27,836 nt of DNA from contig JACQWZ010000109.1 in assembly GCA_016209005.1 (NCBI GenBank), positions 1 to 27,836 of the forward strand, written 5' to 3'. This DNA is from Candidatus Kuenenbacteria bacterium (GTDB taxonomy: Bacteria; Patescibacteriota; Patescibacteriia; UBA2591; PGYQ01). The notes beneath the pieces are model-generated. The model ran no database searches. It was not told the origin of the DNA and worked only from the letters and a program-made list of their open reading frames with translations. Shown in pieces: positions 5,754 to 26,555 of the stretch (position 1 is its first letter; every line of letters starts with the position of its first letter). A program made the translations under genes and the position numbers.

Positions 5754-5839
5754 GTATATTATGTAGTTATGAATATGGAATATGGAATATGAAATAATTC
5801 CCTAAAAGCTAAAAGCTAAAAGCTAAAAGCTAATTCAGG

Positions 5840-9404: not shown

Positions 9405-10655
9405 TTAAATGTTTTTATAAACTTTTAGTGTTTCTTTGGCGCATTTTTCCCAAGAAAATTCTTTAGCTCTTTTAAATCCTTTTTCAATTAATTTAGTTCG
9501 TAAATTTACGTTGTTTAAAATTAATTCCAAGGCTTCGTTTATTTCTTGTTTTTTATGCGGATTAATTAAAATAGTTGATCCGGCTGTTATTTCTGGCAAA
9601 GATTCAATATTAGAAGTAATTACTGGTATTTTTTTTGCCATTGCTTCAATGACTGGCGTGCCAAATCCTTCATGAAACGATGGGAAAACAAACGTTTTTG
9701 CTTCGGAAAATAAACCGTTTAAATTCTCTGGACTAATATAACCCGTAAAAATAATTTCGTTTTTATAAGGAGAGCGCAAGGCTTTTTGATAAATTTTTTT
9801 AGCTTCCCATCCTTCTTTGCCGGCAATAACTAATTGGTATTTTATAGCGGAATTTTTTTGAAATAATTCAAACGCTTCAATCAATGTTTTAATATTTTTT
9901 CGCGGTTCAAGAGTGCCTAAAAATAAAATATAATTTTCTTTGATCTTATATTGGTTTTTAATTTTTTCTATTTCTAATTTTGGAAGTTCACTGAAGAGTT
10001 CTTTGTTGATTCCATTGTAAATCACTTCTATTTTATTCGCGGGAGTTTTAAATATTTTTATTAAGTCTTGTTTTATGCTTTGAGAAACAGCGATAATTTT
10101 TTTTGCCCTTTTTAAAGCATTAGGCGTTATCACTTTAACATTTAAAAATTGACCGGGCGGAAATAATTTTGGGAATTTATAAATACTTAAATCGTGAACA
10201 GTCACAATTGAGGGCTCATTATATGACAGGGGTAAATTTGGGGTGGGGGAATGCCAAATATTAAGATTTTCTCTTTTTAAAAAAGCGGAAGTTAAAAAAT
10301 GAGAATAAGCGATAGGTAAAAATTTTTTATATTGGCTAAAAGGAAAATATTTTATTTTTACCCAAGGTTTTGAAAATTTTGTTATATTTTTTTCAGCTAT
10401 TTCTTTGTCAAAAAATAAAACATACTCATTTTTTTCTTTATCCAGCATCTTTTCAGAATATCCCACAGTTTGCTGCGAAGATGAATGGATATTATATAAA
10501 TCTTTCTCACAGGATTTAATACCTTGTAGAAAGGCGCGGGATTTGTTTTCAAGACTAATCAAATGTTTTACCAATTGATAAGTATAGTGGGTTATTCCCA
10601 CCAAATCGTCTTTTTCCGGGTTTAAAATTGTTCGACAATCAATGCCTATCCTCAT
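9405..10655 (-). CDS. GT4 (group 1) glycosyltransferase with a ~35-aa internal insertion
   Basis: Motifs MRIGIDCR, TVHDL, VIYNG, FLGTLEPRKN and FVFPSFHEGFGTPVIEAMA (EX7E). Confidence 0.93.
   Translation of the reverse strand: MRIGIDCRTILNPEKDDLVGITHYTYQLVKHLISLENKSRAFLQGIKSCEKDLYNIHSSSQQTVGYSEKMLDKEKNEYVLFFDKEIAEKNITKFSKPWVKIKYFPFSQYKKFLPIAYSHFLTSAFLKRENLNIWHSPTPNLPLSYNEPSIVTVHDLSIYKFPKLFPPGQFLNVKVITPNALKRAKKIIAVSQSIKQDLIKIFKTPANKIEVIYNGINKELFSELPKLEIEKIKNQYKIKENYILFLGTLEPRKNIKTLIEAFELFQKNSAIKYQLVIAGKEGWEAKKIYQKALRSPYKNEIIFTGYISPENLNGLFSEAKTFVFPSFHEGFGTPVIEAMAKKIPVITSNIESLPEITAGSTILINPHKKQEINEALELILNNVNLRTKLIEKGFKRAKEFSWEKCAKETLKVYKNI
10437..10544 (-). repeat. In-frame coding repeat element, GT4 copy (KSRAFLQGIKSCEKDLYNIHSSSQQTVGYSEKMLDK)
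   Basis: Aligns without gaps to DnaE 23791-23868 (59/78 nt) and DnaE 25420-25527 (65/108 nt), counted by hand. Confidence 0.85.
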
Positions 10656-10773
10656 AAGAAAATAGCTTTTAGCTGTTAGCTTTTAGGGAAAAATAAAATA
10701 TGTTATACTAAGTGTAACATAGAACAATAAAAATACAAGAATAATAAATAGTTAAAATTTAAAAGTGCAAAGT

Positions 10774-10889
10774 CAGGAGTTACGCACTATTAATGTGCAT
10801 TTGGCTAATATTAGCTAAAAATGAAAAATTAACAAAAATTCAATTTTCGTTAACTTTAGCCATTTTTTGATTAAACTGCGTAAGTCCTG
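10774..10889 (+). mobile_element. 116-bp MITE copy 3
   Basis: Same TIRs, with direct AAAGT flanks. Confidence 0.95.
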
Positions 10890-11091
10890 AAAGTGTAAAG
10901 TCACAGTTTTGAGTTAAAAGTTTACCCATTCACTTTTTGATATTAATTAAAAAATATTTATTATTTTATTATTTTAAAATTATTTTCAGAAAATTTAAAA
11001 AGTGAGGGGTTTAATTTTGTCCGTCAGCTGGTGGATTTAACTTTGAATTTTTAACTTTAACTTTGAACTTTTAATTTTAAACTTTTAACTT

Positions 11092-11207
11092 CAGGAGTTA
11101 CGCACTATTAATGTGCATTTGGCTAATATTAGCTAAAAATGAAAAATTAACAAAAATTCAATTTTCGTTAACTTTAGCCATTTTTTGATTAAACTGCGTA
11201 AGTCCTG
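11092..11207 (+). mobile_element. 116-bp MITE copy 4
   Basis: Same TIRs, with direct AACTT flanks. It shares a TTCGTTAAC variant with copy 3. Confidence 0.95.
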
Positions 11208-11269
11208 AACTTATCTTTTATTCGCGTTAATAAATTAGTGGTTGATTTACTCATTATTAATTTTAATCT

Positions 11270-11764
11270 ATGGCTATTACTACAAACAAACACGCTTATC
11301 ATAATTATCAAATTTTAGAAACCTACGGAGTAGGAGTTGTTTTGACTGGACCAGAGGTTAAATCAATTAAAAAGGGGCAAATTAATCTTAAGGGAAGTTA
11401 TATTTCTTTGGATTTTAGAATTCCGGAAAAACCTTTCTCTAATGTTATTTCAAAATATTCTCTCCCCTTTGTGTGGCTAACTAATTGTCATATTTCACCA
11501 TATGCTCCAGCAGCTGGAGCACAACAAAATTATGAACCAACTCATTCCCGAAAACTTCTTTTGAAAAAGAAAGAAATTAAGTCTTTAATCGGTAAATTGA
11601 AAACCCCGGGCTTGACATTATTGCCAATAAAGGTATATACTAAGGGCAAGATAATTAAATTAGAAATTGCTTTATGCCGAGGAAAGAAAAAATACGACAA
11701 AAGAGAGGATATTAAAAAAAGAGAAGTAAAAAGAAAAATTGAAAGAGCCTTAAAAAATTTCTAA
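11270..11764 (+). CDS. smpB: SsrA-binding protein SmpB (with a ~14-aa insertion)
   Basis: Motifs NKHAYHNYQILETYGVGVVLTGPEVKSIK, HISPY, RKLLLKKKEI and RGKKKYDKRE. Confidence 0.96.
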   Translation: MAITTNKHAYHNYQILETYGVGVVLTGPEVKSIKKGQINLKGSYISLDFRIPEKPFSNVISKYSLPFVWLTNCHISPYAPAAGAQQNYEPTHSRKLLLKKKEIKSLIGKLKTPGLTLLPIKVYTKGKIIKLEIALCRGKKKYDKREDIKKREVKRKIERALKNF

Positions 11765-11831
11765 ACAATAGCTTAATGACAAAAATTTTAAACTTTTTTT
11801 GTCATTTTGATTTTTGGATTTAACATTTTTA

Positions 11832-12242
11832 ATGAATAATTTTAATAAACAAAAATTAAATAAAATTTTTAAAAAAAATCAAATTGTTTTAGTTTATCTT
11901 TTTGGTTCAGAGATAAAAGGAACTTCTCATAAAGAAAGCGATATTGATATTGGCGTTTTATTTGGGAAAAAAGTAATTTCTGAAGATTATTTAAAGTTAG
12001 AAGGAATGTTAATTGGAGTTTTTTCTGAAATTTTTCCTAAAAAAGAAATAAATATTGTTAATTTAAATCAATCCTCGCCTCTTTTAAAACAAACAGTAAT
12101 TTTAGAAGGGAAAGCGCTTTATATTAGAAGTGAAATTGAAAGAATTTTATTTCAAATTCAAACGCTTCATCAATATGAAGATTATTTGCACTTAGATAAT
12201 ATTTATAATCAATTTTTGAAATTAAAATTAAAAGCTATATGA
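11832..12242 (+). CDS. Minimal nucleotidyltransferase antitoxin (MntA-like, type VII TA)
   Basis: VYLFGS-X9-SDIDIGV Pol-beta NTase motif. ATG at 11832 is preferred to TTG at 11814. ATGA overlap with the HEPN gene. Confidence 0.88.
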   Translation: MNNFNKQKLNKIFKKNQIVLVYLFGSEIKGTSHKESDIDIGVLFGKKVISEDYLKLEGMLIGVFSEIFPKKEINIVNLNQSSPLLKQTVILEGKALYIRSEIERILFQIQTLHQYEDYLHLDNIYNQFLKLKLKAI

Positions 12243-12658
12243 CGAAAATAATTAAAAAACAGCTTCAAGAAAAAATAAATAATCTTCTTGAAATTTATCA
12301 AGGATTAAAACAGCTTCAAAGATTTAAATTAAATGATTTAAAAGAAAATATTGAAAATATTTGGGCAGTTACTTTCGGTTTGATAGCAGCAATCGAAGCA
12401 ACTTTGGATATTGCTCAATATATTTTAGCTGAAAAAGGAGTAAAAAGCGAAAGTTATGGCCAAATTCCTTTTAAATTATTTGAAGAGAAAATAATTAATC
12501 AAAAATTTAAAGAAGAAATGCAAAAAATGATTGGATTTAGAAATTGCGCTATTCATAATTATCCTTCTTTAGAAGAAGAACACCTTTACGAAATTTTACA
12601 AAAAGATGTTGAGGAATTTAAAAAGTTTTTAAAGATTGTGGTAAAGTTAAAAGTTTAA
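12239..12658 (+). CDS. HEPN/DUF86 RNase toxin (HepT-like)
   Basis: GFRNCAIHNY contains the RX4H HEPN motif followed by Tyr. The gene is coupled to the upstream MNT gene. Confidence 0.88.
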   Translation: MTKIIKKQLQEKINNLLEIYQGLKQLQRFKLNDLKENIENIWAVTFGLIAAIEATLDIAQYILAEKGVKSESYGQIPFKLFEEKIINQKFKEEMQKMIGFRNCAIHNYPSLEEEHLYEILQKDVEEFKKFLKIVVKLKV

Positions 12659-12695
12659 ATTTTAATTTTAATAAAAATGAAAGGGGGTGAGAAAT

Positions 12696-12830
12696 ATGAG
12701 AGAACAAGAAACAGAGAGACAACAAGAAATATCTGATTTTAATATGTATGTCAAAAATAATAATTATAAACTAAAAGGTGGAGACCATGATACATTATTT
12801 TTATGTGATGAAAAAGGGAACAAATGGTAA
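12696..12830 (+). CDS. Possible 44-aa small protein (frame continues 24 codons past the TAA)
   Basis: Strong SD-like AAGGGGGTGAG just upstream of the ATG. No homology recognised. Confidence 0.35.
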   Translation: MREQETERQQEISDFNMYVKNNNYKLKGGDHDTLFLCDEKGNKW

Positions 12831-13548
12831 GTGATAAATACTGACATTACTCTACTAATGAAAGGGGTAAGAGAGATAATTGAAGGAGAAAAAAATAAAA
12901 ATTAAAAATTGGAATTTTATTAAAAATTAAAAATTAAAAATTTTCCTCACCTTTTGTTAGTTAATTTAAATTTGTTTTGGATTTATAATTTTGGTCATTG
13001 TGATTTATTTAGGATTTGGGATTTGGATATTGAAATTTACAAAATTTTCTTTTAGAAAATTTTGTTTTGGGGATGCTTATAATCGACGGAAAAGTTCTTT
13101 AAAAGTTAGCTATTTGTCTCGGCAAGACAAAAAATTAGCCAAACATAATAAATGCTAAATTTATTACACAGGTCAAAGAAAAAGTTCTTGCTTTTGTAAG
13201 ATCCTTTACTTTAACACCTGTTTCCGTTGTAGCTTAATTTTTTTTAATCTGCAACCATCCACCTATTGATGTCTAATAAATAGATCTGGATGTCATTTTT
13301 AGACTAGATAATTTTTTTCGTTTTAAATTAAATTATTGAAATTCATTAAGACTAGAATAAGCGACATTTGTTTATTTTTTTTGCTTATTTCGAAATTTAA
13401 AATAAACTATACTAGTAGAAGGCTTTTAAATATTTTTTCAGACAGGGGTGAAAATCCCCTCATCTCCACCAAAAAATAATTTAAGATTTAAGATTTAAGA
13501 TTTATAATTTTCTAAAAGCTAAAAGCTAAAAGCTAAAAGCTAATTAGT

Positions 13549-14565
13549 ATGAAATTTCCTCGTTCAAAAAAACTTATTTTTGTAAATAATAAAGGCGGGG
13601 TTGGCAAGACAACATTGGCTTTTAATTGTGCGGTTTCATTTGCTAAATAAGGATATAAAATAGCTCTCATTGATTTAGATCCACAGTGCAATCTTTCTCG
13701 CCTTGCTATAGGAGAAGAATATTATGCGAAAAATCTTTTTTCTGAAACAGAAAAAACAATATATGATGTTTTACGCGGAGTGATTGAAGGCGGTAGTGAT
13801 ATAAATTTTGCTATAAAATTTCTTCCAGTCAAAGCAGATCAAAACCTTTTTCTTCTTAAGGGAGATATAAATCTTTCAGTTTATGAGGGTTTGCTTTCAA
13901 CCGCTTATGGACAAGCTGCTTCTGGTCAGCCAATTGGATATTTTCAAACAAGCGCTATTGATCGTTTTTTAAGAGAAAAAGGATTAAGCGAGCAAATAGA
14001 TATTTTTATTATTGATACCTCGCCAAGTTTAGGACTTTTAAATCAAATGATTTTACTTGGGGCTGATTATTTTATTGTGCCAATGATGCCTGATGCTTTT
14101 AGTGTTCAAGGTATTGAAAATTTAGGGATTATGTATGAAAAATGGAAAATACAATGGCGAAACTCCGCCAAAGCTCTCGCGGGAAATATAGAAACAAAAT
14201 TTGTGCTTCAAGCAGATCCGCTTTTCACTGGATATATTGTTAATTTTTATAATGTTTATGGCAAACAACTAATCGCTGATCATCGCGCTTGGATGGAAAA
14301 AATTCCAGATAAAGTGCGGACATATTTATCTGAAAAACATTATCGCAATGGGCTTGTGCAGGAAAGCTGGAAAAAGCCATTAAATATTATTCAGGATTAC
14401 GGCAGAATTCCTTCTAAGTGCCAAGAACTTGGGGTTGCGATTTTTGATCTTAATCCAGCATTGATAGCCGATAACCAGCTTGGCACAAAAGAAAATATTG
14501 AAAAATCAAAAGAGGAATTTACCAATCTTTCAAATAATATTTTAAAAATTATTTCGGTATATTAA
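13549..14565 (+). pseudogene. ParA/MinD-family ATPase interrupted by an in-frame TAA at codon 34
   Basis: ATG 13549 encodes NNKGGVGKTT (deviant Walker A), followed by FAK*GYKIALIDLDPQCN (TAA at 13648-13650). This is the same frame as ORF 13780-14565, which carries IIDTSP. Confidence 0.9.
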
Positions 14566-14585
14566 ATTTTAAAGTTTTATTTTAT

Positions 14586-14969
14586 ATGCCATTATTATTT
14601 AAATACAAATGTAGCTATTGTGGAACAAGAGAAGAAAATAATAAAATTATCACGGGAGAGTGTGATTTTATAATTGAAGATGATGGTGGGTCGTGTATAT
14701 ATGTGAAGATGGGTGATAAAGAAAAAGCCCTACCACATCCATGCGAGGAATTATTAGCTAAAGAATTAACAGGAAAAAATTTAGACGAACTTTTAAAAGA
14801 AAGACGTGTTTTTTTTAAAGAAAATAGAATTTGTTTAAAATGTTTTAAGCAAGAATATGAGTGTAAATGTGAAAAAGCTGATTTTATGGAAATTAAAAAA
14901 ATAGAGGGCTTGAGATGCCCAAAATGTAAAGAAGGAATAATAGAAAAAATTCCAGCAGGAATTTCTTAA
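14586..14969 (+). CDS. Cys-rich hypothetical protein, probable zinc-binding
   Basis: Contains CSYC, HPC, CLKC, CKC and CPKC clusters. Confidence 0.75.
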   Translation: MPLLFKYKCSYCGTREENNKIITGECDFIIEDDGGSCIYVKMGDKEKALPHPCEELLAKELTGKNLDELLKERRVFFKENRICLKCFKQEYECKCEKADFMEIKKIEGLRCPKCKEGIIEKIPAGIS

Positions 14970-15069
14970 TTTAAAATTTTTACTTATTTTACAATTATTT
15001 ATAAATTTGATATTCTTAAAATATAATTTTTTTATTTTTCTAAAAGCTAAAAGCTAAAAGCTAATTTTT

Positions 15070-15249
15070 ATGAAATCTCAAAAATCAATCACAAAACGTT
15101 TTAGCAAAACTAAAACAGGAAAAATTTTGCATCGCGCTTGCGGGCAAGATCATTTTAACTCGCGTGAAAAAGGTAAAACAACTCGTGGTAAACGTCGAGA
15201 TAAGGTATTATCTCCAGCCTTTCAAAAAGCCCTAAAAAAACTATTTTAA
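15070..15249 (+). CDS. rpmI: 50S ribosomal protein L35 (59 aa; absent from the ORF track)
   Basis: MKSQKSITKRFSKTKTGKILHRACGQDHFNSREKGKTTRGKRRDK matches the bL35 pattern KRF-X2-T-X2-GK...H. Confidence 0.88.
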   Translation: MKSQKSITKRFSKTKTGKILHRACGQDHFNSREKGKTTRGKRRDKVLSPAFQKALKKLF

Positions 15250-15285
15250 TTTGTAGTTTGTTTTAATTTTTTTGAATTACACAAT

Positions 15286-15401
15286 GTCATTGCGAGCCTT
15301 GTACTCAAGGCGAAGCAATCTAAAATCAATATTAATTAAGATTGCGGAGCTTGTCCCGAGTAAATGCGAGGGATCCGCGTTCGCAGACTCCTCGCAATGA
15401 C
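15286..15401. repeat. REP-like palindromic element with GTCATTGCGAG / CTCGCAATGAC ends
   Basis: 11-bp perfect terminal inverted repeat, plus inner GCAATCT...AGATTGC arms. Confidence 0.85.
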
Positions 15402-15445
15402 GAAAAAACCGCATTTATAATTTCTAAAAGCTAAAAGCTATTTTT

Positions 15446-15991
15446 ATGAGAACTTATCGTAATAAATACGCCGCTTATAAAAGGCGCAAAAAATTTTATT
15501 ATAAAAATGAAAAAATATTTGCTCCGCAAGTTAGACTTATTGATGAACAAGGCCAATTTGTTGGAATTTTTCCAACCAGAGAAGCGCTTGCGATGGCGCG
15601 AGAAAGAGGATATGATTTGGTAGAAATTTCTCCCAAAGAAAATCCTCCAGTGGCGAAATTTTTAGATTTTGGGCAACTTCAATATGAAGAACAAAAAAAG
15701 AGACAAAAGCAAAAAATTAAATTAAAGACAGTGGAAACAAAAGGAATGAGATTAAGTTTTCGAATTAGTCAACATGATTTAGAGGTAAGATTAAATCAAG
15801 CAAAAAAATTTTTAAGCAAAAAACATAAAATAAAAATAGATATGAATTTAAGAGGAAGAGAGAAAAAGCACATAGATTTAGCTTTGGAGATTATGCAGAA
15901 ATTTATTGAGCAATTAGGCGAAAAGATTGTTATTGAACAACCAATTACAAGACTAGGCGGCAATTTATCCGTTTTAATAAAAGGAGAATAA
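15446..15991 (+). CDS. infC: Translation initiation factor IF-3
   Basis: Motifs NEKIFAPQVRLID, GYDLVEISP..NPPVAKFLDFG and LRGRE. Confidence 0.95.
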   Translation: MRTYRNKYAAYKRRKKFYYKNEKIFAPQVRLIDEQGQFVGIFPTREALAMARERGYDLVEISPKENPPVAKFLDFGQLQYEEQKKRQKQKIKLKTVETKGMRLSFRISQHDLEVRLNQAKKFLSKKHKIKIDMNLRGREKKHIDLALEIMQKFIEQLGEKIVIEQPITRLGGNLSVLIKGE

Positions 15992-15994
15992 TTT

Positions 15995-16828
15995 ATGCCA
16001 GAATTACCGGAGGTTGAAACAATTAAAATAGAATTAGAAAAAATTATAAAGGGTAAAAAAATAAAAAACATAGATATTAAATTGCCAAAAATTATCAATG
16101 TTCCACCCGCTCAATTTAAAAAAATTTTAATTGATTCAAATATAATCAATATTAAACGTCGAGCTAAAATTTTAATCTTTGAATTATCAAATGGATATAA
16201 TTTATTTATTCATTTAAAATTAACCGGTCAATTTTTTTATCAGTCAACAATTAACAAACAGCAACCAACAATAAAAAAAGGTCAGGTAATTTTTAATTTT
16301 ATTGATGGATCAAAACTTTTTTATAATGATTTTAGAAAATTTGGCTGGTTAAAATTAATGAATAATAAAGAAGCGGAAGAATTTTTAGAAAAGGAAAATT
16401 TTGGACCCGAACCCTTGAAGCAAGAATTTACTTTAACTGTTTTTAAAAAAATATTAGGAAAAAAGAAAAGAAGCAAGATAAAGCCTCTTTTGATGGATCA
16501 AAAATTTATTGCTGGAATTGGCAATATTTACGCGACAGAAATTTGTTTTTACGCTAAAATTAATCCATTGCGGATTATTTCAACTTTGCGAGAGAAAGAA
16601 ATTGATGAACTTTATAAAGGAATTAAAAAAATCCTATCAACAGCAATTAAGTTAAAAGGATCGTCAATAGACATCTATTTAGATATTTACGGACAACAAG
16701 GAAAATATATTTCTTTTTTGAAAGTTTACGATCGAGCGGGGGAGTTGTGTTTAAAATGTAAAACAAAAATTGAAGAAATTACACTTGCTGGACGCAACAC
16801 ATATTTTTGTCCCAAATGCCAAAATTAG
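15995..16828 (+). CDS. mutM: Formamidopyrimidine-DNA glycosylase (Fpg)
   Basis: MPELPEVET N-terminus, RRAK, HLKLTG, H2TH motif GIGNIYATE and C-terminal CLKC...CPKCQ zinc finger. Confidence 0.97.
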   Translation: MPELPEVETIKIELEKIIKGKKIKNIDIKLPKIINVPPAQFKKILIDSNIINIKRRAKILIFELSNGYNLFIHLKLTGQFFYQSTINKQQPTIKKGQVIFNFIDGSKLFYNDFRKFGWLKLMNNKEAEEFLEKENFGPEPLKQEFTLTVFKKILGKKKRSKIKPLLMDQKFIAGIGNIYATEICFYAKINPLRIISTLREKEIDELYKGIKKILSTAIKLKGSSIDIYLDIYGQQGKYISFLKVYDRAGELCLKCKTKIEEITLAGRNTYFCPKCQN

Positions 16829-16892
16829 CTTGGTAGCTTGTAGCTTGTAGGCAATCCTTAATTTCTAATTTGAAGAGCGTAGAACAATGTTT

Positions 16893-16980
16893 TTCTACCG
16901 CTTTTTAAAGCGGGTTGTGCGACTTTAGTCGCCAAGTTTACAGGCTAAAGCCTGTAAACCCGAACTAAAGTTCGGTAGAA
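16893..16980. repeat. Cluster of four REP-like hairpins with CTTTAG/CTAAAG-type cores
   Basis: CCGCTTTTTAAAGCGG, GCGACTTTAGTCGC, GTTTACAGGCTAAAGCCTGTAAAC and CCGAACTAAAGTTCGG, enclosed by outer TTCTACCG...CGGTAGAA. Confidence 0.85.
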
Positions 16981-17202
16981 ATGTTTATTCTTTTACAGTC
17001 TAAATTTTTAATTTCTTAATTTTTTTATTTTTATTTCTATAATATTTTTTTGACGATCGTCCAAAATGTACTATCGTTTTTTATTTTCTATCCCCCACCG
17101 TGTTAACACGGTGAATTTTAAATATTATAACTGCTCACAATCCACTCTTTTTTAATTTTTGACCTTTCTTATACTCCTCTATAAAAAACTTATCAAGCAA
17201 GA

Positions 17203-17430
17203 TCATAATAATTTTAAAAGTTCTCCTAAAGATAAATTGATTTTATTAAGAATATTTTTTAAAGTTCCCTTTCTTATTACTTTATGATTTGGAATAACTA
17301 TGGTTTCTTTTCCATAAATAGTCTTTTTTCTTAATTTAATATGACTTCCTCTTTGACTATAAATTTTAAAGCCTAATCTTGTTAAAATTTTTATTAATTC
17401 TTTTGCTGAAAAAACTGGTAATTTAGGCAT
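17203..17430 (-). CDS. hicA: HicA-family mRNA interferase toxin
   Basis: LGFKIYSQRGSHIKL...VIPNH...GTLKNIL dsRBD-like HicA pattern. Confidence 0.92.
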   Translation of the reverse strand: MPKLPVFSAKELIKILTRLGFKIYSQRGSHIKLRKKTIYGKETIVIPNHKVIRKGTLKNILNKINLSLGELLKLL

Positions 17431-17707
17431 ATTGTAATTTTTTTAATTTTTCTATTTCTATTGAAATAGGAACCATAAATTCTCTTTCAATAAAAAGGGG
17501 GATTTCTTCTTTTTCATCTTCTAAATATAATTTAATCGCCTCTTGTATATTTTTTATGGCTTCCTCAAAAGTATCTCCTTGAGAATAACAACCAGAAAGA
17601 GAAGGGACAGAAACACAAAATCCTCCATCTTTTTCTTTTTCAAAAACTGCATTAAAAATTAAAGATTTATTATTAGTTATAAATTTTTTGATTTTGTAGT
17701 TTTTCAT
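17423..17707 (-). CDS. hicB: Short HicB-family antitoxin, upstream of hicA
   Basis: EKDGGFCVSVPSLSGCYSQGDTFEEAIKNIQEAIKLYL HicB N-domain, with no obvious C-terminal HTH/RHH. Confidence 0.9.
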   Translation of the reverse strand: MKNYKIKKFITNNKSLIFNAVFEKEKDGGFCVSVPSLSGCYSQGDTFEEAIKNIQEAIKLYLEDEKEEIPLFIEREFMVPISIEIEKLKKLQYA

Positions 17708-17761
17708 AAAACATTCTATAAAATAAATTAAATTTTATTAATTTTTGACCTTTTTGATTGT

Positions 17762-17789
17762 ATTATATTCTTTTAAAAAATCTTGTCAA
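17762..17789 (-). promoter_or_regulatory. Sigma70-type promoter for hicB-hicA
   Basis: Minus strand TTGACA-N16-TATAAT, about 55 nt upstream of the hicB ATG. Confidence 0.75.
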
Positions 17790-17794
17790 ATTTT

Positions 17795-18919
17795 TTAATT
17801 TAATAAAATAATTATTTCAACGTGATCTTTTATTTTGGGCGTTCTTGTTGTCCAAAAAGGAGAAAATTTTATTTCTGCTTTTTGGATTTCATTAAATTGG
17901 CTGAAATATTCTTCAAGTTCCTTCTTTTTTAAACCAACCAGTTTATTTTTATTTAAAATTTCCGTTTTTGAATTTAAAGTCGCCATTCCTTCCAAATGAA
18001 CTTTAATTATCGCTTCTTTGGTTTGAGAATTATATTTTTCAATTGAATAAGTAAAATTTTGCAGAGGACTAATTAATTCTTGATTAGAAGAAATTTTTTC
18101 TAAAAGTTTAGACTTGGCAATTGCTAATAATTTTTCTTTATCAAAATTAATGCCGGTAATTTTTAATTTAATTCCTAAATTAAATTCATCTTTTTGTTCT
18201 TTTATTTCTGTGTCTTTTATTATTTCCACAATTTCAGAAACAAAAAGAGAGGGGATTGAATTATTTTTTTCATATTCAGACGATTCATCAATTCCTTTTT
18301 GAATTTTTTCTAAAACTTTTTCTTTTAATTTATTTGTCGCGCTTTCAATATATTTTTCCGTGATAATTTTATTTTTTTTAATCCCTCCAGTCATTGGTTC
18401 AAAACTTTGAGCGTAAATTTTATCTTGCGTTTGTTTTTGAAGGCCGGGAATAATAAAATAAACTCCTTTAGAAATTTCATTTTCTTTTCCGGGTTGATCG
18501 GCGTAAACTTCGGCTTCGGTTTTTCCATTAGCCGGAATAAACGCTCTTTCTTTGAGGCGATATAAAATATTATCCGGAGAGAGCAGGCGAGTGGTTACAA
18601 CAAGGCGGCGATTTTCTGATGTAAGATTAAAAATTGTTACTTTTCCAGTCGCTTGCGTTTTTATTTCTGAATTAGTTTCCTGAGCTGGAAAAGTATCTTG
18701 TTCCTCTTCAAAAGTTTCAGAAAAAGTAGATGAAATTATATTTGGATTTTGAGATTCAAAAGTTTCTTTCGCTAAAATAGTAAAATTCGTTTCAACTTTT
18801 TTAAAATTAGGAACAATGGAAATTATCGCTTTACTAAAAGAAAAATAGACAACAGTTAAAGCTAGAATTGTTGTGAAAATAATAAAAGTGAGACTTATTT
18901 TTTTAAGAAGAGAGTTCAT
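17795..18919 (-). CDS. Membrane-anchored hypothetical protein, possibly baseplate-J-like fold as often annotated in Parcubacteria
   Basis: N-terminal TM helix and the segment ATGKVTIFN...LVVTTRL...YRLKERAFIPA. The family call is from recall, not a search. Confidence 0.55.
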   Translation of the reverse strand: MNSLLKKISLTFIIFTTILALTVVYFSFSKAIISIVPNFKKVETNFTILAKETFESQNPNIISSTFSETFEEEQDTFPAQETNSEIKTQATGKVTIFNLTSENRRLVVTTRLLSPDNILYRLKERAFIPANGKTEAEVYADQPGKENEISKGVYFIIPGLQKQTQDKIYAQSFEPMTGGIKKNKIITEKYIESATNKLKEKVLEKIQKGIDESSEYEKNNSIPSLFVSEIVEIIKDTEIKEQKDEFNLGIKLKITGINFDKEKLLAIAKSKLLEKISSNQELISPLQNFTYSIEKYNSQTKEAIIKVHLEGMATLNSKTEILNKNKLVGLKKKELEEYFSQFNEIQKAEIKFSPFWTTRTPKIKDHVEIIILLN

Positions 18920-19061
18920 AAAAATGGAGGTTAGAGATTAGAAGTTGGAGGTTAGATGAGTAGAATGCAGAATTATTTAAATGATAAAAATGCAAAAATA
19001 TAAAAAAATAAAACCAAAACACAAAAACATTAAAACAAAAAAACAATAAAACAAAAAAACA

Positions 19062-19118
19062 ATAAAATATTGAAATTCCGATACTATAAAATATTGAAAT
19101 TCCGATACTATAAAATAT
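19062..19118. repeat. 24-bp tandem repeat (2.4 copies) at the truncation point of the AlkD remnant
   Basis: ATAAAATATTGAAATTCCGATACT occurs twice, followed by ATAAAATAT. Confidence 0.9.
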
Positions 19119-19269
19119 GATCTCTCCCGATTTCTTTGGCAAGTTTTCTTAAATTAGGAATAGAGACGTTAAAAGCTTTTTTAGGATTAATTCCAAATCG
19201 CGCCATTCCCTCAATATTTTTATGGCTGGATAATTTTTTAAGTTTCTTCAAAATATCATCAGATTGTAT
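19108..19269 (-). pseudogene. N-terminal remnant of a DNA alkylation repair (AlkD-like) protein
   Basis: (I)QSDDILKKLKKLSSHKNIEGMARFGINPKKAFNVSIPNLRKLAKEIGRDH followed by TAG. The rest of the domain is missing. Confidence 0.75.
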
Positions 19270-19308
19270 TTTTATAGTTTTTTTATTTATTTTACACCTA
19301 ACCATTTT

Positions 19309-19337
19309 GTAGAGACGTTTTGACAAAACGTCTCTAC
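19309..19337. repeat. GTAG-type REP hairpin that supplies the stop codon of the peptidase gene
   Basis: GTAGAGACGTTTT-gac-AAAACGTCTCTAC, a 13-bp perfect stem overlapping the TAG at 19334-19336. Confidence 0.85.
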
Positions 19338-19957
19338 GACAAAATCACTTCCTTTCCATCACCACAAAAAATATTTTTATCATTTTCAACCAATATCCCT
19401 TGCCCATCACGTAAAACACGAAGCGGGAATTTTAAATTTTTCATTTTCTCTTTCACTTCTATTTCTTGCTCGTCTGTGTAGTGAACTTTCAAGACAAAAG
19501 AAACATAATTAAGCGCGGAAAAATCAGTAACGCTCCACCTGTCTGTTGTTTTATCTTTCCAATTAGATACTTCAATCGTTGGGCGCATAATATACGCTCC
19601 AGCGCTTACACCAATATAAATTTTCCCCTCACTTAATAACTCTTTTAGAATTTTATCAAATCCTGTTTCCTTTATTGCTTTAAGTAAATAAAAAGTATTG
19701 CCTCCTTCAATATAAATTATGTTTTTATCTTTAAAAAAGTTTTTTAATTCTTCTTTATTTTTTTCTTCAATATCTATTTCATCAATAGGATATCCTTCGC
19801 CTCGAATAGTGGATTTCAATTTTTGATTAAAATCAGTTTTTGTTCCTTTTAACGCAGTTGTAATATAACCAATTTTCATTTGATCTTTTGGAATGCCAGT
19901 TAAATTATAACCATATTTCAAAAGAAAACTTAAATCTGAAGCAAGAATGAGTTTTAT
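19334..19957 (-). CDS. Peptidase S51 (dipeptidase E-like, class I GATase fold)
   Basis: Motifs IYIEGGNTFYLL, YIGVSAGA (nucleophile Ser) and VHY. The frame extends to ATA-AAA-CTC-ATT-CTT-GCT-TCA (xKLILAS) at 19957, with an upstream TAA at 19966. Confidence 0.85.
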   Translation of the reverse strand: MKLILASDLSFLLKYGYNLTGIPKDQMKIGYITTALKGTKTDFNQKLKSTIRGEGYPIDEIDIEEKNKEELKNFFKDKNIIYIEGGNTFYLLKAIKETGFDKILKELLSEGKIYIGVSAGAYIMRPTIEVSNWKDKTTDRWSVTDFSALNYVSFVLKVHYTDEQEIEVKEKMKNLKFPLRVLRDGQGILVENDKNIFCGDGKEVILS

Positions 19958-19970
19958 ATATTTTTAATAA

Positions 19971-21126
19971 TTATTTTTTCTTTTTAGAATTTAATAATTT
20001 TTTTACTTCCCGATCAAAGTCGGATTCAAACATGTGGTCTTGAATAACCCGGTATTTTTCAAATTCGCTTTCGGCTAATGCTATTGCCACTTTATGACTA
20101 ATTTGACCGCTATCCTGCAATATCAGGAGTTACGCATTATTAATGTGCATTTGGCTAATATTAGCTAAAAATGAAAAATTAACAAAAATTCAATTTTCGC
20201 TAACTTTAGCCATTTTTTGATTAAACTGCGTAAGTCCTGAATATTGCATTTTCGCTAAATTGTAAAAAACTATCTAATTTTTCTACCCAATCTTTCATAT
20301 ACATTATTTTGCCTTTACGCGCCTGACTTTCTGCAAAAACCAAATACATTTCCACAATTCTATTTAATTCGTCCATCTCATACTTATTCAAATAATTTTT
20401 GGCAATCACTGCATCAGTTTTTCTAATTGCTCCCTTAGGTGAGTTTTTCCAATTCGTAAGTCCCATATTTTGTTTTTCGCTGTTTACCCTGTTATGAATA
20501 ATTTCCGCTGTGGTTTGGTTAGTTATTGCCCAGTGAAGTTTGTTTTGTACGGTAGCAAAAAATTGTTTGGTAATTTTTTCATTTGGGTTATAATCAGCGC
20601 TACACTGTGCGTAAATGTCGGTAATTTTTTGATAGAATCTACGCTCGCTGGAACGAATATCGCGAATACGCGCCAGTTGTTCTTCAAAATAATCTTTACC
20701 AAAAATAGTATTTGGATTTTTCAGCCGTTCATCATCCATAGCAAAGCCTTTGATGATATATTCTTTCAAAATCTGTGTTGCCCAAATGCGAAATCGTGTG
20801 GCTTGAGAACTATTTACTCGATAACCAACTGAGAGAATCGCATCAAGATTATAAAACTTTGTGTTATATTTTTTCCCATCATCGGCAGTTAGTTCCAAAA
20901 TGGAACTAACTGAATTTTCATGCAATTCTCCACTTTCAAAAATATTTTTAAGATGTTTAGTAATAGCTGGTCTTTGCACACCAAACAAAAGAGCTATTTT
21001 GTCTTGTGTAAGCCAAATATTTTCATCACGCAAAAATATCTCCACTTTCACCTTGCCGTTTGGCGTGGTATAGAATAGAAATTCTGTAAATATGTTCTGT
21101 TTTTCAATCTGTTTATTCTTTTTCAT
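19971..21126 (-). pseudogene. RhuM-family (virulence RhuM-like) protein disrupted by MITE copy 5
   Basis: Motifs WLTQDKIALLF, YRVNSSQATRFRIWAT and RDIRSSERRFYQKITDIYA. Removing 121 bp restores ...FSENAILQDSGQISHKVAIALAESEFEKYRVIQDHMFESDFDREVKK (344 aa). Confidence 0.9.
20124..20239 (+). mobile_element. 116-bp MITE copy 5, inserted in rhuM
   Basis: Same TIRs, with direct AATAT flanks. Confidence 0.96.
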
Positions 21127-21847
21127 AGTTTTTAATTTCTTTTTTTAATAGATTTTTAAAATCTTTTAAAATCATTTGATGATTAACTGGTAAAAATTCT
21201 TTTAGCTCTTTTCTTATGTCTCCACGGTAATTTTTAAATTTTTCTAAAATTATTGGCAATAGTTTTTTTTGCTTGTTATTTAAATAATTATTTTTTAGCA
21301 AAAAATATAAATCATACCAATCGCGCGGTTTGCTTCTTGACAATAAAGCGGTTAATTTACCTTCGATAATTTCTTCTTGCGACAAATGAATAATATCATA
21401 AGTTGGTAAAAAATCAGTTTTAATTTGGCTGATTTCTTTCTTTATTTTTTTATTGCTTTGCCTAAATGAAATTTCAATTTTTAAATTAATTTTATAGTTA
21501 TAAAAAGAAAAAATAGTTTTAGCTAAATAACCGCCAGTTGTTTGTTTGGCTTCTTCAATATCTAAAATAAATCCCCAACTATTAAGAGTTGAATAAATAT
21601 CTATTAGCAAATTTTTTATTTCTTGATAACTGATATTTTTCATTGCTGTAAAATCCAAGTCTTCGGAAAATCTGGGACTATTATAAATAATACGCAAGGC
21701 AGTTCCTCCCTTAAATAACAACCTGTCAGATCCAACTTGTTTATATAATTCAGACAAAAAACTGTGTTGCAAATATTCTCTGGCAACGGTTAATTCATCC
21801 GTTTGTATTCTAATAGATAATCTCTTTATTTCGTCTTGATTTATCAT
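21113..21847 (-). CDS. AbiEii-family nucleotidyltransferase toxin (type IV TA)
   Basis: Motifs LLFKGGTALR, RFSEDLDF, KLTALLSR and PRDWYDL. Confidence 0.92.
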   Translation of the reverse strand: MINQDEIKRLSIRIQTDELTVAREYLQHSFLSELYKQVGSDRLLFKGGTALRIIYNSPRFSEDLDFTAMKNISYQEIKNLLIDIYSTLNSWGFILDIEEAKQTTGGYLAKTIFSFYNYKINLKIEISFRQSNKKIKKEISQIKTDFLPTYDIIHLSQEEIIEGKLTALLSRSKPRDWYDLYFLLKNNYLNNKQKKLLPIILEKFKNYRGDIRKELKEFLPVNHQMILKDFKNLLKKEIKNYEKE

Positions 21848-22439
21848 AAATTTTTTGAGCTAATTCTTTTAATGAAGCTCTGTTAAAAAGTTTAATAAAA
21901 TTCATTAGTTTTTTATAATTTATTTTATTTACATTAATTCTGTCATATAAAGATTTTTTCTTTAAATCAACAAAATAAAAATAATCAGCCAAAGCTTTTT
22001 CCGGTTCAGCCAAATATACTAGCTGGCCTTCAATATTTTTTTTAATATAACCTGTGAACACTTCTTTTTTAATATGGCAAAAACTGTAATTTATATTTTC
22101 AACAATAAAGTTTCGCGTTGTTTTAGAAGTAGCTGATGTTATGGAATATACGGTCTCTGGAATTATTCCGTAAAACATAAGGGCATATTCAAAAGAAACA
22201 TAAGAAGGATAATATAATTTATTAGCAATTTCTAATTCAGACGGTTTAAAGTTTTTATCAAAATATAGCCCTCTTTTTATTTTCGCGTAAATATCCTTTG
22301 TTATATTTCTTAAAATAAATTTTCTAGCTGATTCACAGTTAACACTAAAATACCTTTGTAAATCCAAAGGAGTAAAAATATATTTACGCTTTTCTCTAAT
22401 AAAATTTTGTACCCCGATAATGTTTAATTTTTTCTTCAT
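21810..22439 (-). CDS. AbiEi-family antitoxin / transcriptional regulator (type IV TA)
   Basis: N-terminal wHTH-like segment and motifs KIKRGLY, PSYVSFEYALMFYGIIPE and AEPEKALAD. ATG at 22439 is preferred to TTG at 22463. Confidence 0.9.
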   Translation of the reverse strand: MKKKLNIIGVQNFIREKRKYIFTPLDLQRYFSVNCESARKFILRNITKDIYAKIKRGLYFDKNFKPSELEIANKLYYPSYVSFEYALMFYGIIPETVYSITSATSKTTRNFIVENINYSFCHIKKEVFTGYIKKNIEGQLVYLAEPEKALADYFYFVDLKKKSLYDRINVNKINYKKLMNFIKLFNRASLKELAQKIYDKSRRNKEIIY

Positions 22440-22493
22440 AGTATGATTTATGTTATGGGACAATTATGTCCTAAAAATGAATTATCTATTTTT

Positions 22494-22522
22494 AGTATAA
22501 ATAATATTCATAAAACCGTCAA
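22494..22522 (-). promoter_or_regulatory. Sigma70-type promoter for the abiEi-abiEii-rhuM operon
   Basis: Minus strand TTGACG-N17-TATACT. An inverted repeat GGACA-N4-TGTCC lies between it and the start codon. Confidence 0.7.
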
Positions 22523-22665
22523 GTTTAATTTTTTTTTACTTAAAAATAATCAAAAAATAACCAAGATTACTCTCAGTTATTTTTTAAAAATGTATAAACC
22601 AGACACTGCTTAATATTTTTCTAATTGATTTGTTGTTTTGTTTTTTTATATTATTTTTTTAAATT

Positions 22666-25600
22666 TTAAATTAATAATTTTTTAATTTCTTCTTTTATTT
22701 CCTCATTATAATTAATAAATAAATTCGTGGCAATTTTTTGATCCCGACCATTATTTTTATAATTAAAATAAACTTGTTGTTTTCCGGGATGGTTAATTAA
22801 AATATTTTTTAATTTTTGAATTAAATCTTGATCAACAGTGGAAGATAAATTAATGCAAATGGAATTAATGGGCTTTTGTTTCTCAACTGGTTCGTTATTT
22901 TTTTGTTGCTCCATTGGATAGCGAGGTGTTTCTAATGGAATAGACCACTCATGGGAAAAACTTTTTGGTTTAGGAATAAAATTTTTATATTTTTTTATTA
23001 ATGATTGAATATTTTCTTCTGTTATTTCTTCCGCTTCATCAACTAATAATTTAACACTTTCATCTTTGTTGGACAATTTTCCTCGAATTAAAACCATTTT
23101 ATTTTCTTGCCAAATTTCAGAATTTCTTTTTAAAATCGAGGGAAATATTAAAATTTCCAAAGAACTGATTCCATCTTCTATTGTTACAAAAAGCATTAAT
23201 TCTTTTAATTGGCGAGTGAAAACTTTTTGTATTTTAGTGATTAGTCCGGCTGTTTGAATATAATTATTTTTAGAATTATAATTTTTAAGTTTAGAATAAG
23301 GAGAAATAATTTCTTTAAATAAAATCCTAATTTTTTCAAAAGGATGTTTTGAAACATAAAAACCAAGCAATTCTTTTTCCCAAGCAAGATTTTGATTTTC
23401 ATCTATTGGTTTTGTTGTTTTTTCGTCAGAGGTGTTATGCCCATCTTTGGCCGAATATCCGCCTTTGGCGGATAAATTTAATTTTGGCAAGGTGCCTAAA
23501 GAAAGAAAATCGAATAAATTAACTTGATCCGAGTTTTCTATTTTATTAATTTTTCGATTGTAATTTAAAATTTCTTCAGAATTTTCTAAAAATTGAGAAC
23601 GTTCTCCAAATTGATCAAATGCTCCGCATTTAATTAAACTTTCCAATGATTTTTTATTTAAATCTTTATGATTAATTCGTTGGGCAAAATCTTCCATACT
23701 TTTAAATTTTCCCTTTTCTTTTCGCTTTTCAATAATTACTTCAATAATTTTATCTCCAACATTTTTTATAGCCGACAAACCAAAACGAATAATTTGTTGC
23801 GGGAATGAATGGATATTTAAAAGATTTTTCTCTTTGGACTTAATATCTCGCAGGAAGGCGCTGGATTTGCCTTGATGTATCGCCGTGAAATTAGCAAAAC
23901 TTTCATTAATATCCGGCGATAAAATTTTAATTTTCATTTCTTTGCATTCATTAATTTCAATGGCGATTCTGTCAATATTATTTTGATCGGACGTCAAAAG
24001 GCTGGCCATAAATTCGCAAGGAAAATGAGTCTTTAAATAAGCGGTCCAATATCCAATTAAAGCGTAACAAGTCGCGTGGCTTTTATTAAATCCATAATCT
24101 GCGAAAGGTTCAATAATAAAAACAAAAACTTCTTCGGCAATTTTTTGAGAAATGCCGTTTGAAACACAGCCCTGAATAAATTTTTCTTTTTGTTCAATTA
24201 AAAGCGCGTGAATTTTTTTTCCAACCGCTTTTCTTAAAATATCCGCTTTTGCTAAACTAAATCCAGCTAATGTTTTAGCAATTTCCATAACTTGTTCTTG
24301 GTAAATGCAAATTCCGTAAGTCTTTTTTAAAATAGGTTCTAATTTTGGATGAAGATAAGACATTTTTTTTCTTCCATGTTTTCCGGCAATGTAGTCCGGA
24401 ATCCATTCCATTGGTCCCGGCCGATAAAGAGAAACCATAGCGATAATATCTTCGAAATTATTTGGCTTAAGTTGCTTTAAACATCGTTTCATTCCGCTAC
24501 TTTCAAGTTGGAACACGCCAGTTGTTTTTCCTTCTTTAAAAAGTTCGAAAGTTTTTTTATCATCAAGAGGAATTTGGTTAAGATCAATTTTTACACTGTG
24601 GTTTAATTCAATTAATTTAATTGTTTTTTGTAAAATAGTCAGATTTTTTAAACCTAAAATATCTATTTTAAGCAATCCTAAATTTTCAACGATATTCATG
24701 GAATATTGAGTGACAATTGTTTTATCGTCTTGAGTTGGATGTTGCAACGGAACATAATTATCAAGAGAATTTTTAGTAATCACAATGCCGCAAGCGTGAG
24801 TGGAAATATGTCTGGCGACCCCTTCTAATTTTTTGGAAATTTCAAGCAGTTTTTTAACTCCAGAATCAGTGTTAAATAAATTTTTTAATTCTGGCGCATT
24901 ATCAATTGAATCTTGAATAGAAGATCCAATAATCATTTTTGCTATTTTATCGCAAAAATTATATTCCATGCTTAAAACTCGACCGCAATCGCGAATAGAC
25001 GCTCGAGCGGCCATTGTTCCAAAAGTGGCTATTTGAGCGACATGATTTTTCCCATATTTTTCTTCTATATATTTTATAACTTCATTTCGACGATCATCGG
25101 CAAAATCTAAATCTATATCAGGCATACTAATTCTTTCTGGATTTAGAAATCTTTCAAATAATAGATTATATTTAATTGGATCAATCTCTGTGATATTAAG
25201 AACATAAGAAACCAAACTTCCCGGAGCCGAGCCACGACCTGGACCGACAACGATTTTATTTTTTTTTGCCCAGTTGACAAAATCTTGAACAATAAGAAGA
25301 TAAGAAGCAAAACCAGTGCGTTCTATAGTTTCTAATTCATATTTCAAACGAGATAAAATTTCTTCTTTGCATTCAGGAAATTTTTGTTTTAATCCTTGAT
25401 AGCAAAGTTTTTCAAGATATTTATCCAGCGCATTCTTAGAGTCTGGCATTAATTTAGCGCTTTGTGAATTGATGTCTAATAAATTTTTTTTATGTGATTC
25501 AGCATCTTGTAAGAAGGCGCTGGATAAATTCGCGTCAAGATTATCCGGCACATCAAAATGCGGCAAAAGAATTTCTTTAAGAGGAATTTCTAAATTGCAC

Positions 25601-26412: not shown

Positions 26413-26555
26413 AAAATCAATTAACAATTAACAATTAACAATCAATAATTAACAATGAATAATAAAATCAATTAACAATTAACAATCAACAATTAACAAT
26501 GAATAATAAAATCAATTAACAATTAACAATCAACAATTAACAATGAATAATAAAA
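26411..26555. repeat. Higher-order tandem repeat (51, 44 and 44 bp) built of AACAATT heptamers, abutting the dnaE start codon
   Basis: Unit ATAAAATCAATTAACAATTAACAATCAACAATTAACAATGAATA. The first unit has one extra heptamer. Confidence 0.9.

Follow-up and report, generated by a model that had tools for sequence, protein, structure and literature searches.

The window analysed here is a stretch of 27,836 nucleotides from the genome (810 kb, 29% GC) of a groundwater bacterium, a Kuenenbacteria-like member of the CPR that is closest to Candidatus Kuenenbacteria. Two of its genes, both on the minus strand, carry segments related to one another. The first (9405-10655, 416 aa) encodes a GT4-family glycosyltransferase (Pfam Glycos_transf_1, 3.8e-37, and Glyco_transf_4, 1.3e-14), and the second (22666-26427, 1253 aa) encodes DnaE, the alpha subunit of DNA polymerase III, with PHP, DNA_pol3_alpha, finger, HHH_6 and OB domains. 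The glycosyltransferase gene holds one full element copy at 10437-10541 (minus strand; net insertion 105 nt, residues 39-73), made up of a 100-nt core at 10442-10541 and a right-hand ATAAA at 10437-10441. DnaE holds a full copy, DnaE-1, at 25420-25524 (minus strand; net 105 nt, about residues 301-336), between the PHP and palm domains, and a truncated copy, DnaE-2, at 23800-23865 (minus strand; 66 nt, residues 855-876), within the helix-hairpin-helix region. DnaE-2 lacks 39 nt at the right-hand end of the element and breaks off at 8 nt of microhomology (CARCAAA) shared by the element interior and the native flank.

An earlier, sequence-only reading of the window had described three homologous segments at these places, all minus-strand and in frame with the host gene, and in this it was right. 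Its limits were too wide: comparison with empty sites gives a net 105 nt (35 codons) for the full copies and 66 nt (22 codons) for the truncated one, whose leading K and trailing QQI are native DnaE. Its hand-counted ungapped identities were exact (65/108 for GT4 against DnaE-1 and 59/78 for GT4 against DnaE-2, to which we add 47/78 for DnaE-1 against DnaE-2), its count of five synonymous changes among the 14 codons differing between the GT4 and truncated DnaE copies was reproduced, and the perfect 13-bp inverted repeat that it gave for 25419-25529 was confirmed (ATTTATCCAGCGC with its complement). The homology of the three segments is borne out by an nhmmer profile to which only copies from other phyla contributed, and which recovers GT4 (2.9e-19), DnaE-2 (2.6e-9) and DnaE-1 (2.4e-6) and has no match at E<=10 in the shuffled genome. 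By blastn, GT4 matches DnaE-2 with an E value of 4e-10, and DnaE-1 matches the other two window copies weakly when taken alone (E 0.005-0.06); nhmmer and covariance-model matches to the element had E values between 1e-28 and 1e-6.

Filled alleles are present in the DNA assemblies of four samples, and no assembly joint was found at DnaE-1 in spanning contigs from these four independent samples; the glycosyltransferase protein with its insert has an exact match assembled independently in two public runs. AlphaFold models both DnaE inserts as loops of low confidence that link well-folded parts: pLDDT falls below 50 exactly over the DnaE-1 insert and likewise in the DnaE-2 loop, which lies between two strands. 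Such low values are in part to be expected, since the alignment offers no homologous columns at the inserts.

Empty sites and the ATAAA target

Clean empty sites were found in congeneric genomes for five insertions (DnaE-1, DnaE-2, GT4, GatB and FemAB); all five have one ATAAA, whereas the filled sites have ATAAA on both sides. The GT4 site is empty in three congeneric orthologues, with a single AATAAA there. Alignment of filled and empty DNA places its left target pentanucleotide at 10542-10546 (minus strand), which now reads ACAAA, one synonymous change from ATAAA. The DnaE-1 site is empty in five congeners and 24 further genomes of the same order, and the DnaE-2 site in 29 of 29 orthologues examined, three congeners having ATAAA directly before it. 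Orthologues without the segments, as the sequence-only reading had anticipated, thus include DnaE in 29 same-order genomes, GatB in 119 of its 119 best homologues, and GT4 and FemAB in congeners. Among copies from many genomes, 123 of 125 have ATAAA flanks on both sides.

The element integrates at the pentanucleotide ATAAA, which then borders it on both sides, a picture that target-site duplication and target-adjacent insertion without true duplication would give alike. With the 100-nt core and 5 further nt, a full insertion comes to 105 nt, equal to 35 codons. DnaE-1 departs from the target rule at its left flank (25525-25529, minus strand), which needs an extra step: this flank reads ATTTA where relatives have a single AATAAA at the same place. 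This ATTTA is the complement of the right-hand ATAAA and lengthens the terminal stem to 13 perfect bp; hairpin-templated correction may have been the step involved.

Structure, copies and distribution

The element encodes no protein of its own and exists as many copies of its 100-nt core. Across 36 copies the 14-bp terminal stem is 97% paired, with a compensatory swap from A-U to C-G in 15 of the 36, and two inner hairpins covary too; over stem and hairpins together 84% of cells are paired, compared with 37-46% in slid controls. Copies have 30-50% GC against 29% for the genome, and they depart from their consensus (50% GC) mainly by GC-to-AT changes, which together point to a foreign origin. 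In this genome the terminal stem is retained in most copies, and the inner hairpins have decayed towards AT. A search of ten copy-holding loci against Rfam at E<=1 gave no relevant match, intron and ribozyme families included, and a self-splicing intron or known ribozyme was rejected on this result. An intein would bring a Hint/splicing domain of some 130 aa or more, with conserved residues at the junctions; the inserts, of 22-35 aa, lie in host proteins with no intein or Hint match in Pfam, and this candidate was rejected as well.

Further copies do exist, as the sequence-only reading required: this genome has about 12 long ones, four of the five congeners hold 13, and at least 118 were found elsewhere. 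Ten of those in this genome lie in frame within genes (DnaE twice, GT4, GatB, FemAB, Wzy, a GlgA-like gene and others), and two are non-coding (C39:3198-3299 and C6:154-256), so that the earlier statement that the window has no intergenic copy holds for the window only. Close species differ in where the element is inserted and congeners in whether it is present, and its host genes are unrelated to one another. No near-identical pair of copies was found in this genome, and therefore no source copy can be named for the species-specific insertions.

A scan of a species collection for the termini pattern found at least 118 copies in about 45 MAGs from many CPR lineages, against ~0.5 copies expected by chance, a figure estimated from collection size and the 23 bases that the pattern specifies. 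Some of the copy-bearing MAGs are labelled Omnitrophota, Planctomycetota, Nitrospirota and 'Gammaproteobacteria' (labels as given). Copies per genome range from 0 to about 37, and in other genomes they are mostly intergenic, with some in frame in UvrC, FolD and an integrase. In one Doudnabacteria MAG the copies share identical termini and a uniform core length, which suggests, from sequence likeness, a recent burst. The covariance model had matches in 2 of 150 genomes drawn evenly from the phylum, a lower bound because the model was built from AT-drifted copies and the filters were strict. The spread of the family over CPR lineages is patchy. Carriage by phage was rejected as an explanation, the termini pattern having no match in 2.9 million viral contigs.

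An inverted-repeat scan of the genome gave 44 matches, against none in a reversed-genome control, and placed the element in a hairpin superfamily forming a graded series of 32, 58, 80 and 100 nt. The 58-83-nt members are stop-rich, and none of 17 lies in an ORF, all being intergenic. The in-gene family is the stop-free, multiple-of-three size class of this larger superfamily. The sequence-only reading had proposed a protein-invading repeat family; insertion in frame within genes stands, but the family is not specific to coding regions. Among the papers searched, none describes the element and none treats MITEs or palindromic repeats in Patescibacteria/CPR; the hairpin family is apparently undescribed.

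Reading frames and the predicted peptide

The family consensus is stop-free in three of the six frames, and host genes use exactly those three. All ten genic copies are stop-free in the host frame, and the genic length variants (105, 108 and 123 nt, together with the 66-nt insert) are all multiples of three; core lengths elsewhere range over 95-111 nt. We infer from these open frames that frame-compatible genic insertions are read through, adding a peptide of ~35 residues that in the commonest frame would read KS[S/R][T/A]FL...GK[V/M][L/R]DK. The three frames give three unrelated peptides. Selection on the peptide, hinted at earlier, finds support in one orthologous pair only, the FemAB insert, which shows 10 synonymous and 10 non-synonymous changes and a dN/dS of 0.15 (0.17 in the remainder of the gene); in a second orthologous insert constraint is relaxed (dN/dS 0.65, against 0.25 for the rest of the gene).

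Discussion

We regard it as probable that the three segments represent a hairpin-forming mobile element, non-autonomous and of the MITE or REPIN type. Our working model is that insertions in other frames, and those of other size classes, would have been purged from genes by selection, and that the copies in this Kuenenbacteria-like genome are old, having become fixed, drifted towards AT and partly lost their inner hairpins, while persisting as loops in DnaE (two sites), GT4, GatB, FemAB and other proteins. Insertion times would differ, that in FemAB probably preceding the split from the nearest congener and those in DnaE and GatB following it.

The closest behavioural parallel is that of the Rickettsia palindromic elements, in-frame palindromic repeats in housekeeping genes (Ogata et al., 2000, via PMC10969869). 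The analogy drawn in the sequence-only reading holds in this respect, the present element being palindromic, apparently read through in frame and tolerated in housekeeping proteins. As summarized in PMC10969869, the Rickettsia elements share with ours a short palindromic form, in-frame positions within housekeeping genes that have no relation to one another, a small host genome, a conserved added peptide, tolerance at sites that suit the protein fold, and further copies between genes; they are given there as about 150 nt, compared with about 105 nt here. They belong to one genus, whereas our element is found in CPR bacteria and has copies labelled as belonging to several phyla. It also has a defined ATAAA target on both sides, uses three reading frames and forms part of the graded series of 32, 58, 80 and 100 nt hairpins. 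The likeness, drawn from descriptions, is one of behaviour and not of membership, the host here being a Kuenenbacteria-like CPR bacterium; the element appears to be a new family.

REP sequences are flanked by a GTAG-type tetranucleotide, and the present element differs in its ATAAA motif. Palindrome-associated elements derived from IS200/IS605 insert beside a fixed tetra- or pentanucleotide and have subterminal hairpins; they lack terminal inverted repeats, and both end hairpins lie on the same strand. Target-adjacent insertion and subterminal hairpins are shared traits, and identical left and right cleavage motifs would mimic an ATAAA duplication, but ours is truly palindromic, its terminal stem being 14 bp long. 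With REPs and REPINs it shares hairpins in the form of single short or longer palindromes, a short conserved motif at the hairpin foot and tens of copies per genome (PMC3116915, PMC3337134). REPINs, however, are extragenic and described as vertically inherited in one lineage (PMC3116915, PMC3337134), whereas most long copies in this genome are intragenic; many-copy MAGs without a RAYT match, and RAYT-like genes in element-free relatives, are a further difference from REPIN-RAYT. ERIC, Coxiella QMITE1/2 and Correia elements resemble ours in being small and without a protein product, in ending in inverted repeats with direct repeats on either side, and in sometimes being fused in frame to host ORFs (PMC10969869, PMC5896051). 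Their flanking repeats vary in sequence where ours are fixed at ATAAA, and in-frame internal insertion into an essential enzyme is exceptional among them but accounts for most copies in this genome. As in MITEs generally, the element is below about 500 bp, without coding capacity of its own and multicopy, with terminal inverted repeats and an apparent flanking ATAAA duplication; among the matches listed for five copy-rich, incomplete MAGs no parent IS with the same ends was found.

Nor was there, among those matches, an autonomous partner with the same ends at IS-like distances, paired termini lying ~30-110 nt apart, and no transposase was found that correlates with the element. RAYT genes were sought in the copy-rich MAGs and 41 relatives with the Pfam Y1_Tnp and NCBIfam RAYT models and one RAYT protein. 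This genome has RAYT-like ORFs, one with short hairpins 0.8 kb upstream and 0.55 kb downstream. A Falkowbacteria MAG also has such ORFs: one reaches 84.6 bits (cut-off 80), and another is preceded by an element copy whose end lies 18 nt upstream of it. This nearness is suggestive in the two genomes. No RAYT match was found in the Doudnabacteria (37 copies) or Magasanikbacteria (17 copies) MAG. Y1 genes occur in 25 of 41 genomes of the order, with or without the element, and RAYT-like genes are common in relatives that lack it; their presence does not track the element. The mover may be a hairpin-recognizing single-strand transposase (HUH/Y1-type) cutting at ATAAA, the foremost candidate though one we would put below an even chance; a DDE transposase that duplicates 5 bp at a site it prefers would be somewhat less probable, and something else would take the remaining share. 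A more ambitious reading, which we regard as doubtful, is that the element is a hairpin replicator spreading horizontally across phyla, aimed at ATAAA and moved by neither a matching-ended IS transposase nor a resident RAYT, its 105-nt, three-frame-open form being an adaptation to coding sequence in gene-dense CPR genomes and not a by-product of copy survival.

It is improbable, to our mind, that the inserts arrived by transposition and were then kept for a functional loop, or for a hairpin in mRNA or DNA serving as a regulatory, pausing or stability signal. Purifying selection on the FemAB insert is as strong as elsewhere in that gene, most copies in this genome retain the terminal stem, and in the genus genic copies exceed intergenic ones (10 of 12), the reverse of what is seen elsewhere. 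Yet loss of frame-breaking copies from a compact genome suffices for the genic excess, and the unrelated host genes, insertion sites that differ between close species, AT-decayed inner hairpins, three unrelated peptides and relaxed constraint in the second orthologous insert all argue against retention for function. Removal at the RNA level, with the terminal stem joining the borders so that the element is cut from the mRNA like an intron and proteins lack the peptide, is more improbable by far. The strong conserved helix with its compensatory changes would indeed join the element ends, but excision needs neither an open frame nor a multiple-of-three length, and 10 of 10 genic copies have both at 29% GC; stop-containing size classes are missing from genes, Rfam intron and ribozyme families give no match, and the FemAB insert has a synonymous excess. 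We know of no bacterial mechanism for cutting and religating mRNA at such hairpins, which counts further against it. That the segments are not mobile at all, but native sequence, chance AT-rich similarity or an assembly artefact, is refuted, despite the weak pairwise blastn of DnaE-1, by sites empty in all orthologues examined, a significant independent profile with no match in shuffled sequence, identical sequence in the assemblies of four samples and termini conserved far beyond chance.

The preferred reading, a mobile hairpin element surviving in genes where it is in frame, bears on CPR genomes, which are small, gene-dense and thought to be poor in mobile elements. The consensus, three-helix structure, ATAAA target and dated insertions offer handles on insertion history and species-level markers, and tolerance of insertion becomes testable in essential enzymes (DnaE, GatB, UvrC and FolD). 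Patchy spread over lineages together with conserved sequence poses a concrete question of how hairpins move between and within genomes. For annotation, the element would account for lineage-specific 35-residue 'extra loops' in CPR proteins. In the window the inverted-repeat scan also located a short member of the superfamily, a 32-nt hairpin at 1802-1833 with CCCCTCACCTT termini and TTTA/TAAA flanks, which falls within an 871-aa ORF (1697-4312).

Results

Two genes of the window carry the element, a hairpin-forming palindromic repeat: the GT4 glycosyltransferase gene (9405-10655, minus strand) holds one full copy (10437-10541), and dnaE (22666-26427, minus strand) holds a full copy, DnaE-1 (25420-25524), and a shortened 66-nt copy, DnaE-2 (23800-23865). 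The sequence-only reading had described these three segments as homologous and in frame, and all three are present with the host frame kept. Its ungapped identities of 65/108 and 59/78 were reproduced (the third pair gives 47/78), the 13-bp inverted repeat that it reported bracketing DnaE-1 was confirmed, and our recount agrees with its 5 synonymous changes among 14 differing codons. About 12 long copies were found by blastn, nhmmer and a covariance model in the host assembly (810 kb, 29% GC, 131 contigs, the window being contig C91), 10 of them within long ORFs and free of stops in the host frame. The genes concerned encode DnaE (two sites), GT4, GatB, a FemAB-family protein, a Wzy-type ligase, a second glycosyltransferase, a GlgA-like starch synthase and two proteins with no Pfam match; non-coding long copies lie at C39:3198-3299 and C6:154-256. 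As an independent test of homology we used a profile made solely from copies in other phyla, which recovered the GT4 copy (E 2.9e-19), DnaE-2 (2.6e-9), DnaE-1 (2.4e-6) and likewise the remaining copies of the host genome, with zero matches in a shuffled genome. The copy in the GlgA-like gene (contig C129, 5722-5828) is a composite of a short and a long element, in which a perfect 32-nt short hairpin (5749-5780) stands in place of the long element's left half and the frame is still open.

That the segments are insertions was borne out by the orthologues. Both DnaE segments are exactly absent in five congeners, whose DnaE shares 76-92% identity across the main part of the alignment, and in 24 further genomes of the same order; the GatB segment is absent in 5/5 congeners and in 119/119 best database homologues, and the GT4 segment in all three congeners possessing the gene. 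The FemAB insertion is common to the host genome and its nearest congener and missing from three others, a pattern of empty and filled sites from which the insertions in this lineage appear to have occurred at different times. The host genome comes from a groundwater metagenome, and the exact GT4 protein was recovered in two other run assemblies while contigs of four samples cross both DnaE inserts with no joints there, which rules out an assembly artefact as the source of the filled alleles. The closest named GatB relatives belong to Candidatus Kuenenbacteria; GatB ranges from 525 to 558 aa in the genus, and one homologue from this group (P0009, 558 aa) equals the host protein in length yet lacks the insert, and therefore has extra residues elsewhere.

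At the DNA level ATAAA is present once in every empty site (as TTTAT where the FemAB copy is in reverse orientation), and filled sites consist of ATAAA, a 100-nt core that starts with TCC and ends with GG, and a second ATAAA, so that each full insertion adds a net 105 nt (35 codons). Of 125 copies gathered from many genomes, 123 have these flanks. DnaE-1 has as its left flank ATTTA, the complement of its right flank, whereby the stem reaches 13 perfect pairs; we infer that this flank arose via hairpin-templated correction. DnaE-2 is missing the right-hand 39 nt, and its break falls in an 8-nt microhomology shared by the element interior and native CAACAAA, which is indicative of a frame-preserving slippage deletion.

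A pattern specifying the two termini matched at least 118 stretches in a species-level genome collection, against a chance expectation of about 0.5 (our estimate from the 23 specified pattern bases and the collection size), and the interiors of the collected copies are homologous along their full length. Among the matches listed, the MAGs are labelled Doudna-, Moran-, Magasanik-, Falkow-, Levy-, Portnoy- and Buchananbacteria, Saccharibacteria and Parcubacteria, and also, as given, Omnitrophota, Planctomycetota, Nitrospirota, Nitrospinota, WOR-3 and Gammaproteobacteria. Copy number is as high as about 37 in one Doudnabacteria MAG, where identical termini and uniform core length suggest a burst of recent activity. 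The distribution is patchy: copies occur in 4/5 congeners, in two more genomes among 35 others of the order and in at least 2/150 genomes drawn evenly from the phylum, and none was found in viral contigs. Copies in other genomes are chiefly intergenic (54/71 by a strict test), with in-frame copies in UvrC, FolD, an XerC/D-type integrase, Wzy and others. In a Falkowbacteria MAG the same termini also occur in shorter forms, spaced about 49 nt, and in units that adjoin or overlap (e.g. C27:13207-13324, C29:3527-3644 and C49:42656-42773), which suggests that the element comes in size variants and in tandem. In at least 14 contigs of the host genome a same 20-nt match lies at a fixed distance from one end, about 23-45 nt (e.g. 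C127, C126, C114, C100, C96 and C59, and also C38, C33, C31, C13 and C8), suggesting that another repeat family breaks the assembly at these contig ends.

The element ends pair as a 14-bp stem, 97% paired in 36 copies from many lineages, in which one position pairs A with U in 19 copies and C with G in 15. Covariation extends to two inner hairpins (CUGCGGGG with CCCCGCAG, in both orders). Paired cells make up 84% of the total, compared with 37-46% with partners slid, and double-change cells number 83, compared with 46 in shuffles. Copies in the host genome fold more weakly, their inner hairpins being largely lost; they have 30-50% GC, the family consensus 50%. They differ from the consensus mostly by GC-to-AT changes (e.g. 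22 vs 2 to 4), which fits a foreign element drifting towards host base composition.

Discussion

The likeness to Rickettsia palindromic elements proposed from the sequence holds for behaviour (PMC10969869); in-frame MITE insertions are also reported for ERIC and Coxiella QMITEs (PMC5896051), and the hairpin architecture is shared with REPINs (PMC3116915). A search of Rfam gave no family match, and among the papers searched none dealt with such repeats in Patescibacteria/CPR. We file the element as a new family of an already known type, whose unusual traits are its strict ATAAA target, three reading frames, graded size series and many lineages.

Among the paired termini listed for five copy-rich MAGs, no long element sharing these ends was observed. 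The constant pentanucleotide at the base of a conserved hairpin is suggestive of a single-strand transposase that recognises hairpins; a DDE enzyme with a target preference would equally leave inverted ends and a 5-bp repeat behind. RAYT-like Y1 transposase genes are present in the host genome and in some carrier MAGs; one of those in a Falkowbacteria MAG starts 18 nt after the end of an element copy. A RAYT-like ORF of the host genome (contig C18, 1303-1992) falls short of the NF047646 cut-off (40.6 bits against 80) and is flanked by short hairpins of the element's superfamily, one 0.8 kb upstream and the other 0.55 kb downstream, the latter separated from the ORF by a pilin-like gene. The MAGs holding 37 and 17 copies yielded no RAYT-like match, and across the order Y1 genes are present in 25/41 genomes irrespective of the element.

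By our reading, only frames +0, +1 and -1 of the family consensus are free of stops, and the host genes use exactly these (seven, two and one copies, respectively). Genic length variants are all multiples of three; cores elsewhere measure 95 to 111 nt. Within the host genome, 44 hairpins that have related termini and TAAA/TTTA flanks make up a superfamily, with the element as its long class; a reversed-genome control gave 0 matches. Long hairpins lie in ORFs in 5/6 cases, 32-nt hairpins in 10/21, and the 58-83-nt classes, closed in almost all frames, in 0/17. If insertion were blind to reading frame, and selection then purged whichever insertions break a frame, this is the pattern that would be expected. 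A perfect 32-nt hairpin of the superfamily, with CCCCTCACCTT termini and TTTA/TAAA flanks, is located at 1802-1833 of the window, within an 871-aa ORF (1697-4312).

The orthologous FemAB insert shows a dN/dS of 0.15 (10 synonymous and 10 non-synonymous changes), similar to the 0.17 found outside it in the gene; constraint is relaxed in a second orthologous insert (0.65 vs 0.25). In AlphaFold models of the DnaE halves both inserts have pLDDT below 50, which is partly expected because the alignment has zero columns there, and are flanked by well-predicted parts; the second is placed between two strands. A third DnaE segment with pLDDT below 50 (23419-23466, residues about 988-1003) is separate from both copies.
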